NCBI GenBank assembly: GCA_951406725.2 | Contig: OX597814.1 | Location: forward strand, 201,252,001 to 201,316,000 | Length of the DNA: 64,000 nucleotides | Origin: Octopus vulgaris | Lineage: Eukaryota | Reading direction: 5' to 3' | Shown: positions 1,755 to 51,419 of the stretch, in pieces | Layout: every line of letters begins with the position of its first letter | Position numbering within the stretch: position 1 is the stretch's first letter | Translations under genes and position numbers: made by a program | Notes under the pieces: generated by a model | Told to the model about the DNA's origin: nothing | The model's database searches: none | What the model saw: the letters and a program-made list of their open reading frames with translations, nothing else

Positions 1755-1800
1755 AACACAACGTTTCAGCTGATATACCCTCCAGCCTTCATCAGGTGTC
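1755..1800 (-). ncRNA. Minimal type I hammerhead ribozyme motif
   Basis: GACAC-CTGATGA-A-GGCTG-(10 nt)-CAGCT-GAAAC-GTT^GTGTT; stem I GACAC/GTGTT, palindromic ACGT stem III. Confidence 0.75.
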
Positions 1801-2105
1801 CTGGGAAAATTTCGAATCTGGGTTCTCGTTCCTAAGGTATTTTCCCAATGTTATTATTATGGCATAGTGGTTAAGAGCACGGGCTGCCAGCCCCAAGATT
1901 CTGAGTTCAATTCCAGACAGTGACCTGAATAATAATAATGACATTGGAAAAATACCTTAGGAATGAGAGTCCAGATAAATTTTCCCAAGACACCTGATGA
2001 AGGCTGGAGAGTACATCAGCTAAAATGTTATGTTAACAACAAACAAGATGAGGACAAATATCCGTCAAATGTAAATAATATAAATAATTCCTCATCTGTT
2101 AAATA

Positions 2106-2449
2106 TTGCTGAGACCCCCTTCGGTCATGACTGACTGTGAGATTGCACCTAGAAAGTTACTCACCCAGGCACAAGTCCGGGCAAAGTTGTTTATGGAAGA
2201 CCAGCAGTCACCCATGCATAACAGCCTCCCCTCTCCACGCCACCAGTGTTATCTAAGGGAAAGGCAAAAGGGCCGATACAGCTTGGCTCCTGTGACATTG
2301 CAACTCATTTCTACAGCTGAGTGAACTGGAGCAACGTGAAATAAAGTATCTTGCTCAAGAACACAACACACAGCCCAGTCAGGGATTCAAACTCACAACC
2401 TCACGATCGTAAGCCTGACGCTCTAACCACTAAGCCATGCGCCTTCACA
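2106..2449 (-). mobile_element. tRNA-derived SINE family C, nested in the SINE-H tail
   Basis: Minus-strand head gtgaaggcgcatggcttagtggttagagcg...gagtttgaatccc; second copy at 20084-20413; flanked by tgttaaatat/tgtcaaatat. Confidence 0.8.
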
Positions 2450-2764
2450 TGTCAAATATAGAACTGCAAAAATTCAGAATTGTGATTAAAAAGACGTTCT
2501 GTAATAAATCAGCAGATACTGATAAAATAACTAACTCATTAATTTTCCTCACGCACTGATTAATAAATAATACATTTTTGCATTTGTGATATGTAAAAAA
2601 TTATTTAGATTTCTTCAAATAATTTTCTAAAATGAGATCAAGCTCAGTTTTTCATTCAGTGAAATATTAAAAATTATCCTAATATCCAAGTTCCTCTTCC
2701 TCACATTCTCCACAGGATGTTTTTCTTATCCATTTTGATTAACTGAATAATGACGTCAAATGCT

Positions 2765-3777
2765 GAACAAATCATTTCATTGTTTGTTTGATTATCTGAG
2801 ACTACAAAATATCCAGGATTTCTTATAATAAACAGTTAAGAATGTTGTCACTGTATTGCATTGATTTTTTTTTTTATATGCTCAGTTCACAATATTTTGA
2901 TATTAAAGCTTTTCTTAGCTGGTAAAAAATCATCATCGTGGCTGTGTGGTAAGTAGCTTGCTTACCAACAACATGGTTCTGGGTTCAGTCCCACTGTGTG
3001 GCACCTTGGGCAAGTGTCTTCTATATAGCTTCGGGCTGACCAAAGCCTTGTTAGTAGATTTGGTAGACAGAAACTGAAAGAAGCCCATCGTATATATGTA
3101 TATATATATAAATATATATATATATATATATATATATTGATACGAGGTCAGTTGAGAAAAAAATTCTATGACCCAGTTTCGTGGTTTGATGTCGGACAGA
3201 CTGTTATTGGCTTTTATCCTGTCATTTGTAGGTAAGATTAATGAATTAGGAAGTGACATTTTGGATCCCTACGGTCAGGGAAAGTTTAAGAAAAAAATAA
3301 ATCTACTACCCTTTAAAATGCGGTGAGCTGGGAGTTCCTCTAGTCAGTTGGCAATAGATCAGTTGGCAGAGGAGTTGAGTTGGCAACAGGGTAGTTGGCG
3401 TGAGGGTTGATGCAGAGATGACAGTTGGCAAGAGGCGAGAAGGAACAAATCATTTCATTGTTTGTTTGATTATCTGAGACTACAAAATATCCAGTATTTC
3501 TTATAATAAACAGTTAAGAATGTTGTCACTGTATTGCATTGATTTTTTTTTTTATATGCTCCGTTCACAATATTTTGATATTAAAGCTTTTCTTAGCTGG
3601 TAAAAAATCATCATCATGGCTGTGTGGTAAGTAGCTTGCTTACCAGCCACATCGTTCCGGGTTCAGTCTCACTGTGTGGCACCTTGGGCAAGTGTCTTCT
3701 ATATAGCTTTGGGCTGACCAAAGCCTTGTTAGCAGATTTGGTGACGGAAACTGAAAGAAGCCTATCGTATATATGTA
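2765..3777. repeat. Direct duplication of about 340 bp (2765-3135 and 3443-3777) including the SINE-A 5' half
   Basis: gaacaaatcatttcattgtttgtttgattatctgagactacaaaatatccag... is present twice, nearly identical. Confidence 0.85.
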
Positions 3778-48399: not shown

Positions 48400-48540
48400 A
48401 TTTAACTTAAAAAAAAAAATGAACGAACTATTGAGTTTGGTTTAATGGCCTACCAATGTATACTATGAGTTTCTTTGCCCTAGGAGTCGGGAAGACACTC
48501 GGCAAGAAATGGAAGCAAATTTGAAAGAAGAAAAAAAAAG
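48400..48540 (+). mobile_element. 5'-truncated 3' UTR-only copy of the R4/Dong LINE
   Basis: Near-identical to 51070-51215; followed by (TAA)n. Confidence 0.85.
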
Positions 48541-48689
48541 TAATAATAATAATAATAATAATAAAAGAACATAAAACAATATCATTGATGATGATGATGA
48601 TGATGATGGTGATGGTGATGATGATACTGATGATAGTAATAGTGGTGATAATGATAATAATGATAATAATGGTGATGATAATAACAATA

Positions 48690-51215
48690 AAAAGCCGACT
48701 ACGGCTGCTATAATGGTACGATTATAATTGTAACAGCAATGATGGCCGTCTCCCCGTGAGCCAATCAAAGCTCAAAAATGATAACATTATCGTAGCACCA
48801 AAATGTTTTTGGAAACTAAAAGGAAAATTAAATCAGTACACCAAATCGCTTGTCCTATGGTTAATCTGGAAGCGCGTCCCCCAGGGAAGAGCCAGCCTGG
48901 GATCGAAAAGTCATCAACTGGCACAAACTCTTCTCTGAATACAGACATGGATGGTCACTTGAATGGGAAATTCCCCAACTCGAGCCCTCCAAGTTCACCA
49001 CCACAGAAAGAAAAATGTAAGCGGAACAAATGGACCCGAGAAGAGTATAAAGAAGTAATATACGCTTATTACTATGCATTAGGTAGGCCATCTCAAGAGA
49101 GACACACCGCAAACTCTTACAGTATATGGAGAACATGGAATCAAGACAGTAGGCCCTATTTGGACGAGAACAAATTGGCAAATGTGAGGAGGGATATCCT
49201 TAGAAATAACAGACTCACAGACAGTGAAATAAGCGCGATCAAGCACGCAACGGAAAATGATATGAATATAAGACACAAAGGAAATGAAGAATCAGATGAA
49301 CAGTATAGCCCGCCACGAGGCTTAATTGAAAGACTGTGGAATACGAATCTCCAATTATACCACTCTAATGGAGTACTTGCCTCAGAAAATATAAACTTCA
49401 ACTGTGGAATTTTTCAAGGTGACTCACTTTCACCTTTAATATTCTGCATAGCCCTAATACCCTTTACAAGTGAATTAAACAGAACAGGGTGTAGGTATAA
49501 AATTGCCAATAAAAAAATAAGCCATCTATTTTATATGGATGACTTAAAACTCTATTAAAGGCCTATTGCGCACTGTGAAAGCATTCAGCGATGACATCGG
49601 GATGGAGTTTGGGCTTGAGAAGTGTGCCAAGGCCACTTTCCAGAAAGGGAAAGTGAAGACCACAAATTCAGTCGAGTTAGATGTTGACACAGTCATAAGA
49701 GAGCTTGAGCAAGAACAAACATACAAATGTTTAGGGATAAATGAAGGCTCTGGTATTCAGCATGCAAGCATGAAAGAAAAGATCAGGAAGGAATGTTATA
49801 GGAGAGTTCGTGCAGTCCTGAAATCTGAACTAAATGCACGTAACAAGGTGTTAGCTATAAATTCCTTAGCAGTTCCAGTTGTTACTTATAGCTACAATGT
49901 GTTGAACTGGAATATGAGTGAAGTAAAGAATATAGATAGGAAAATACGCAAGCTGCTGTGTTGTAATAGGATGCACCACCCAAAGGCAGACGTAGATCGC
50001 CTTTACCTTCCCAGAGCCCAAGGAGGCTAGCTTACAAAACAACCACAATTAGACTGGCCAAATATCTTGAAATAACGAATGACTGGATACTAAAGCTCAT
50101 GGAAAATCACGAGAGATGAAAGAAGCTTCATTCTATCATAAAGGAAAGCAAAAAATTTGCTATTGATCTCGTGCAGGATACCCAAACTGAACAACCCGTG
50201 GGAAGTACGGCAACTATTGTTGCAAAGAAGGTGAAAATAATGGCAACGAAAAAAGCGCACGAGCAATTGGCTGAGAGGTGGGAGGAGAAACCTCTGCACG
50301 GCAAATATGTGGCCCGTAGCAAACAAGCTGATGTTGACCAGAAGCAAACCCATCAGTGGCTACGGAGCTCAGGGCTAAAAGCAGAGAGCGAAGGTTTCAT
50401 CCTGGCTGCTCAAGATCAAAGCCTATTAACCCGAAACTACCAGGTCAATGTGATGAAAAATGGAGCAGACCCAAAATGCCGATTCTGCAACGACATGATT
50501 GAAACAGTGGACCACCTAATCTCTGGATGTAAAGTCTTAGCACCAGTGGAGTATAAATTAAAACATGACAGAGTTGGCCAATATCTACACTGGCTAATAA
50601 GTCGCCATTACAATATCAAAACTGCCGACAAGTGGTATAATCACCACCCTGAAGCTGTAACTGAAGGAGAAAATGTAACGATTCTGTGGGACTTTCCAGT
50701 ACATACAGACCGAAACATCAAAGCCAATAAACCGGATATTGTTGTGAAAGACCAAAACAATAAAGTTTGCTTATTGATCGACATGAGCATCCCCTGTGAC
50801 CATAATATCTCAGCGAAAGAGTTTGACAAGCTCAGAAAATATAAAGACCTGCTCATTAAAATTGAGAAAATGTGGCATCTCAAGGCAGTTACAATACCAG
50901 TGATCATAGGAGCACTAGGAATGATCAAGAAGGGAACCGAAAATTATATGAGAATGATCCCTGGCTTACCATCCCTGCAAGAAGTGCAAAAGGTTGTCTT
51001 AACTGGTACATCACACGTATTGAGAAGAGCATTGTCGATGTGAGAACTATTACTACCCATGTATTTTAATTTAACTTTATTTCTATAAAAAAAATGAACG
51101 AACTAGTGAGTTTAGTTTAATGGCCTACCAATGTATAGTATGAGTTTCTTTGCCCTAGGAGTCGGGAAGACACTTGGCAAGAAATGGAAGCAAATTTGAA
51201 AGAAGAGGAAAAAAA
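48690..51215 (+). mobile_element. R4/Dong-clade non-LTR retrotransposon (RT, CCHC, restriction-like endonuclease), internally deleted and frameshifted
   Basis: KWTREE N-terminus; GIFQGDSLSP, HLFYMDDLKL, FGLEKCA, HHPKADVDRLY, AAQDQ, CRFC..ETVDHLISGC, KHD, KPDIV..LID, KYKDL. Confidence 0.9.
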
Positions 51216-51419
51216 ATATAATAATAATAATAACAACATCAAAGATTACCTTAGGAATGAGAACTCAGGCTCGAAATTTCCCCAACACACCTGATGAAGG
51301 CTGAAGAGTATATCAGCCAAAACGTGTTAACAACAAACAAGATGAGGACAAACATCCGTCAAATGTAAATAATATAAATAATGTAAATAATATACCTACA
51401 CACATATACATATGTTTAG

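Follow-up and report, generated by a model that had tools for sequence, protein, structure and literature searches.

A 64,000-nucleotide stretch of the Octopus vulgaris genome (contig OX597814.1, positions 201,252,001 to 201,316,000 of the forward strand; called the window below) carries copies of nine repeat families, A to I, each with a hammerhead motif. We regard it as highly probable that these are type I hammerhead motifs located at the ends of Penelope-like elements (PLEs) and of short non-coding elements, the latter probably dependent on borrowed PLE enzymes, and that they would cut only as dimers. The sequences link families F and C to PLEs, and three further families are likely PLE ends. 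What carries this interpretation, at the level of sequence, is the demonstrable position of the motif in the pseudo-long terminal repeats (pLTRs) of families F and C, the truncation and inversion of the insertions, and the covariation of the stems.

A first-pass annotation of the window had listed nine hammerhead sites and a 'half motif' and assigned them to about eight unrelated families. All ten are present, with boundaries refined by a few nucleotides, and the half motif (41327-41340) proved to be a complete type I fold (41307-41341, plus strand) with an A3-U8 core and a 2-bp stem II. The families number nine. Their motif cores are indeed unrelated, with no cross-match under E 0.01, but families I (18132) and B (38026) share 3' tail sequence when compared by eye. 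Every named site is a member of a multi-copy family.

The descriptor for type I hammerheads was drafted with the candidate sites already known, and an independent test was therefore run on unselected DNA: 60 stretches of 10 kb at round positions (600 kb), with eight shuffles. The strict descriptor allows no deviation in the core and the relaxed one allows a single deviation. In the window, the strict core gave 4 matches against 0.075 in 40 local dinucleotide shuffles, and 3 against 0.0 when a palindromic stem III was demanded; the relaxed descriptor gave 12 against 2.25, and 9 against 0.58 with the palindrome. Seven of the nine full sites were recovered, the two missed being a decayed copy (18132) and one with a stem I of 2-3 bp (38026). 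The unselected 600 kb held 18 strict palindromic matches (0.25 in shuffles) and 43 relaxed palindromic ones (8.25 in shuffles). Motif density thus exceeds that of dinucleotide-shuffled sequence both in the window and outside it.

The 18 strict matches fall in nine of the 60 stretches, and seven of them come from one array. Extrapolation to the genome searched (2.80 Gb in 227 contigs, the window lying on the largest) gives about 84,000 strict palindromic motifs (Poisson range 50,000-133,000), or 56,000 (29,000-98,000) with the array counted once; both ranges are too narrow because the motifs cluster. The window itself is unexceptional for the octopus genome: 3 strict matches were found where 1.9 are expected (P=0.30) and 9 relaxed where 4.6 are expected (P=0.044, for a window chosen after the fact). 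The surrounding 200 kb contain no strict palindromic match. An Rfam scan of the window listed 87 matches at E≤1 with not one hammerhead among them, which bears out the suggestion that the motifs are under-annotated.

Each site was searched across the genome. The first-look candidate numbers (A 4021, I 1823, C 1677, H 1521, B 1457, G 1268, E 1256, F 1159, D 250) differ from copy numbers; the unselected 600 kb contain 11 copies of A, eight of C, four of G, one of F and none of the other five. Family majorities were taken from the best 24-30 matches per family, top matches being biased towards the query. The majority core is canonical (CUGANGA...GAAA...UH, in type I order) in A, B, D, E, F and I. 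It is restored in the majority for the two families whose window copies are decayed, namely D (29031-29111, plus strand, with A9G) and I (18132-18214, plus strand), the majority of I having the stem III ACACGTGT.

The clearest PLE is family F. Its motif (33006-33096, minus strand) lies in the 3' pLTR, and an open stretch of 816 codons (34603-37050, minus strand) is found 1.5 kb upstream of it. The first 21 codons of that stretch belong to an inverted partial pLTR (36988-37087, plus strand) that holds only the 3' part of the hammerhead and is followed by a (TA)n microsatellite, the type of target expected. What remains is a 5'-truncated frame (34603-36987, minus strand) predicted to encode a reverse transcriptase (RT), an Asn-rich spacer, a CxCX5C linker and a GIY-YIG endonuclease. 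Contigs of four sequencing runs, whose type we guess to be RNA, cover the element, its ends and strand lying beyond their reach. In three of the four, contigs run past 36987 into other sequence, consistent with 5' truncation of the family F copy at that point. A protein search with the frame listed 124 matches of 14,483 candidates, several of them frames of 980-984 residues. The full-length frames show RWK, DKT, the CxCX5C linker, and CxxC and CxH around conserved E and N. At one locus the motif stands on both sides of the frame (L280; such labels denote fetched genome loci outside the window). Family F therefore shows the architecture of an endonuclease-positive (EN+) PLE, a single RT plus C-terminal GIY-YIG frame with flanking pLTRs, and by its motifs it is of Hydra type.

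Family C, by the same kind of evidence, is a Neptune-type PLE. At one locus a frameshifted RT and GIY-YIG frame, in which DKG and the linker CX4CxxC are present, lies between two copies that are 7 kb from each other. The window holds two copies of its predicted pLTR hammerhead, at 26316-26350 (plus strand, U4C core) and at 42753-42787 (plus strand, with G-U in stem II). The first of these is enclosed by the 245-bp arms of an inverted repeat (25877-27315). Family B (38026-38093, plus strand; canonical core, stem I of 2-3 bp, stem III ACGATCGT) appears to mark the 3' end of a young Hydra-type element: an endonuclease C-terminus lies about 2.3 kb upstream in two of six extended loci. Family D is likely the 3' end of an older Hydra-type PLE, with a decayed endonuclease upstream in L137 that is partly common to L127. 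The PLE and hammerhead mobilome proposed by the first-pass annotation is thus supported, the frames of families F and C carrying motif-bearing pLTRs, yet the pattern was already in print (see below). Two more PLE-like frames lie within 100 kb of the window (L260, 5657-7699, minus strand; L264, 7440-9150, plus strand), one of 681 residues and one a Hydra-like remnant.

Other families are short and non-coding. Family A has five copies in the window, with an intact core in the copy at 1756-1799 alone (minus strand; canonical C3-G8, stem III ACGT). This copy is the inverted arm of a putative tRNA-headed short interspersed element (SINE) insertion whose head, with A- and B-box-like segments, was seen by eye at 1861-1927 (plus strand) and whose forward hammerhead is decayed (near 1990-2034, plus strand). 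Further decayed plus-strand copies lie at 15950-15994, 40280-40330 and 51281-51328, the last with G12A and a shortened stem III. The tRNA-like head was also seen by eye in L183, L201 and L203, and is called by neither Rfam nor ARAGORN. Separately, a tRNA-like sequence at 634-705 (minus strand) scores above the Rfam cut-off (38.5 bits); ARAGORN calls none there. The family E insertion (31977-32839, minus strand) comprises slightly more than one non-coding 600-bp monomer and an inverted 183-bp piece (32658-32839); its hammerhead (32260-32350, minus strand) has a canonical core, a GUC site and a 6-bp stem I. Families G and H are elements of 200-300 bp in which inverted duplicates are frequent. 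The H insertion carries the minimal hammerhead at 41307 (5-bp stem I, stem III ACCGGT) and a second, inverted motif (41149-41201, minus strand), and the G hammerhead (41657-41707, minus strand; G3-C8 core, stem III AATATT) sits in an element of roughly 200 bp. Within the window, 5' truncation together with an inverted pLTR piece is seen in F, E, H and A, and opposite-strand pairs are numerous genome-wide.

Families G, H and C depart from the published consensus (C3-G8, U4) and are variants rather than plain members. When positions 3 and 8 were left free, 664 kb gave 20 hits, and all 20 were Watson-Crick pairs: C-G in 14 (seven from one array), U-A in four, A-U in one and G-C in one. The A-U and G-C matches are the window's own sites. 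Shuffles gave 0.8 matches on average, all non-pairing. G3-C8 is the norm of family G (11 of 14 unselected copies) and A3-U8 the majority in family H (30 rows). At position 4, family C has C in 21 of 37 unselected copies and U in 15; C4 makes a CpG, so some of the U4 copies may be decay products. All four Watson-Crick pairs thus occur at core positions 3-8 of predicted ribozymes in the octopus genome. Natural U3-A8 and U4C are recorded in portions of two papers (PMC4209133, PMC3088659), U4C reduces activity in vitro (PMC3088659), and laboratory double mutants at 3-8 rescue cleavage partly (PMC11167929, PMC8495972). No natural G3-C8 or A3-U8 was found in the literature searched, where G3-C8 appears as a laboratory mutant only; Lunse et al. 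2017 and PMC3884650, which mentions 'G3-C8', lie beyond that scope. The core variants, in three of the nine families, are a small addition to a known class. Two further observations concern the core: three copies of a family C-like motif have U at position 6 (A6U; L230, L242, L247), and several different U3-A8 hammerhead families occur in L219, L225, L248, L257 and L385.

Covariation was assessed in a set of ten F-type sequences made up of two copies of F itself and eight relatives at 67-87% identity (L320, a near duplicate of L319, was omitted). The set keeps the core and the NUH site, and 95.3% of its cells are paired, compared with 26-47% in slid control structures. Six of 17 pairs change on both sides, four of nine in stems I and II. 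Among 500 shuffles none reached the paired percentage or the score, and 13 reached the count of pairs. Pairing is thus maintained by covariation in stems I, II and III of family F and its relatives. No two-sided change was seen within A, C and G. The first-pass annotation had described stem III as nearly always palindromic, which holds perfectly in seven of the nine families, while two contain G-U pairs. In the F-type set four sequences have G-C at the palindrome pair of stem III, three have G-U and three A-U. The stem III palindromes, of 4-8 nt, form self-duplexes but not hairpins, and dimer formation is the likely reason for the covariation of stem III. Lunse, Weinberg and Breaker reportedly described in 2017, going by the title, small PLE hammerheads that cleave as dimers, and may list core variants seen here.

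We propose the following route. Two RNA copies, in tandem or as paired transcripts, would pair through the palindromic stem III, and the cut would fall after NUH, probably with help from the element's protein (PMC4209133, PMC11167929). Reverse transcription would then begin just 3' of the motif and usually end early, so that most insertions would be stubs, 200-900 bp long, in which the motif survives, frequently together with an inverted duplicate and beside (TA)n. The non-coding families likely use the same PLE enzymes. Selection would act on master elements while genomic copies decay. Motif-bearing stubs together with many co-existing families could account for the observed motif density.

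Several points weigh against this interpretation. Searches of 24-30 loci per family turned up no coding partner for A, E, G, H or I; an RT does lie beside one G copy (L276) and one I copy (L332), but both look like separate insertions. An endonuclease piece upstream of E in L274 was rejected, (TA)n lying between the two. The Pfam matches to RT and GIY-YIG are below curated cut-offs, and the Hydra and Neptune names rest on motifs. The covariation figures are inflated, the sequences being related and chosen with a search pattern in which the core and the outer pairs of stem III are fixed. Reading the top rows by eye for families A (44 copies), C (37) and G (14) revealed no stem change on both sides. 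Single motifs, 11 in all, fold no better than shuffles (z -1.21 to +1.13), and the hammerhead fold of family H differs from its minimum-energy structure.

The non-coding families may be more than passive pLTR stubs: E, G, H and perhaps A could be retrozymes whose own cleavage gives rise to circular RNA. We consider this quite possible, though on balance not the favoured view. Family E, a 600-bp non-coding tandem monomer, forms direct tandems of that period in L277 and L285, and its longest frame is 62 residues. L211 (2307-4513) carries a retrozyme-like array in which seven canonical hammerheads recur about every 359 bp, five of them in forward and two in inverted orientation. Metazoan retrozymes are known (portions of PMC7229834), and are PLE-derived according to passages of a preprint (bioRxiv 10.64898/2026.07.22.740005). 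Copies of G and H, on the other hand, are mostly single or inverted and, unlike E, do not behave as tandem monomers; the sole G tandem carries locus-specific upstream sequence, and a search for longer G copies gave three matches, all local or weak. The retrozyme reading is in any case nested within the PLE-end explanation.

A stronger version of the PLE-end explanation is tentative and, taken whole, somewhat doubtful. It would hold that the genome contains 30,000-130,000 intact motifs in families with every Watson-Crick pair at 3-8 and with U4C, that G3-C8 and A3-U8 are active, protein-assisted ribozymes undescribed in nature, and that the stem III palindromes are family-specific dimer codes.

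It is unlikely, we think, that the motifs chiefly serve the element's enzyme as signals for protein binding or folding, with cleavage marginal, a view that would apply above all to the G3-C8, A3-U8 and U4C families. An Anolis PLE hammerhead needed protein in order to cut, insertion in vitro did not require its cleavage, and the site coincided with the end of no RNA-seq read (PMC11167929); minimal hammerheads showed low activity (portions of PMC4209133), and the lowered activity of U4C has been noted above. However, positions 3-8 pair strictly by Watson-Crick rules, and diverged relatives keep the core unchanged along with an NUH site, as an active conformation requires.

The first-pass annotation had extended its reading to introns, where sense copies would cut host pre-mRNA and be purged. 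This is very improbable for the window, and pre-mRNA cleavage by its motifs is unsupported. Orientation leans to the plus strand by insertion (10 to 3, P=0.09; 11 to 5 by copy, P=0.21), neither bias being significant, and retrozymes show depletion in the introns of Xenopus (bioRxiv 10.64898/2026.07.22.740005, in passages that do not cover orientation). By contrast, copies with the family-typical core number four on each strand, a single copy could not close a stem III of 4-8 nt as a hairpin, and inspection by eye of the window with its flanks of 100 kb on each side (264 kb, 93 candidate open stretches) recognised no host exon, only transposon frames. A frame at 46828, considered as a host gene, was rejected as a repeat.

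Chance look-alikes in AT-rich repeat DNA are refuted for the named sites and barely credible overall: shuffles do account for 23 of the 71 relaxed matches in 600 kb and single motifs are not unusually stable, but the strict palindromic excess in unselected DNA, the cores restored in family majorities and the F-type covariation all stand against chance. It is the likely source of one unnamed match at 21425 (21415-21468, plus strand), which has a strict core and a non-palindromic stem III and folds otherwise.

The window has other repeats. At 54630-54720 (minus strand) lies one with the core boxes reversed (GAAAC before CTGATGA), with 11 matches in 10 fetched loci; it may be more novel than the window's type I motifs. 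LINE-like (long interspersed element) frames, frameshifted and with weak RT and zf-RVT matches, occupy 48785-51040 (plus strand), a Mariner-type transposase remnant (HTH_48) lies at 38601-39014 (plus strand), and a 64-bp unit is repeated 20 times at 97% identity in 43330-44610. Long inverted repeats occur at 5454-5839 (a 190 bp foldback) and 53681-57140 (347-bp arms, 99%).

The value of the octopus motifs is that of a resource, the class as such being known. The words 'hammerhead' and 'ribozyme' are absent from the main text of an octopus repeat annotation of 2026 (PMC13282606); with that annotation silent and Rfam missing the motifs, the motif could serve to identify some short repeats, now unclassified, as dependent on PLEs. 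The partly rescued laboratory double mutants have natural counterparts in the G3-C8 and A3-U8 families, which so offer a test of how much activity a Penelope element needs.

The combination of PLEs and hammerheads, with its consensus, was published in 2014, and an octopus Hydra element with a hammerhead in 2021. The comparisons that follow draw on portions of the cited papers. Cervera and De la Pena (2014, PMC4209133) reported minimal type I hammerheads in the pLTRs of metazoan PLEs, with numerous consensus families in each genome, and the octopus families agree with that description in the core, the extra base after A9, the palindromic stem III, the many families, the mostly solo truncated copies and the close opposite-strand pairs. 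The Acropora Neptune motif (Fig. S2 of PMC4209133) closely resembles family C. In contrast, the parts of that paper covered name only U3-A8 as a core covariation and lack the G3-C8, A3-U8 and U4C of the octopus families, loop II is longer in B, D, E, F and I (40-60 nt), and the counts of 2,000-9,000 per genome come from another descriptor than the octopus estimate. The portion of the supplement searched yielded no octopus row. A search for octopus hammerheads in the literature led to Hydra-1_Obim, an octopus PLE of the Hydra clade tabulated with its hammerhead in File S2 of Craig et al. (2021, PMC8557442), and to 235 Rfam matches in giant squid. Over 6,000 motifs in 16 families of a coral, and up to 120,000 retrozyme copies in axolotl, were published in 2020.

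Family F resembles the Hydra clade (PMC8557442) in its C-terminal endonuclease, RWK, DKT, CxCX5C, (TA)n targets and pLTR hammerhead. It differs in a frame of about 980 residues that includes an Asn-rich insert, and in a 3' region of 1.5 kb, so that the whole element clearly exceeds the published size of <3 kb, and its hammerhead helices differ from those of Hydra-1_Obim. The family C locus is like the Neptune clade in DKG and the CX2-5CxxC linker before a C-terminal GIY-YIG (PMC8557442), but has the U4C core in the majority of unselected copies given above and is seen at one frameshifted locus. Family E and the L211 array are like metazoan non-LTR (long terminal repeat) retrozymes, being tandem series of non-coding monomers that carry a type I hammerhead (PMC7229834; bioRxiv 10.64898/2026.07.22.740005); the 600-bp monomer of E exceeds the usual 150-450 bp of retrozymes, and its inverted 5' pieces follow the PLE pattern.

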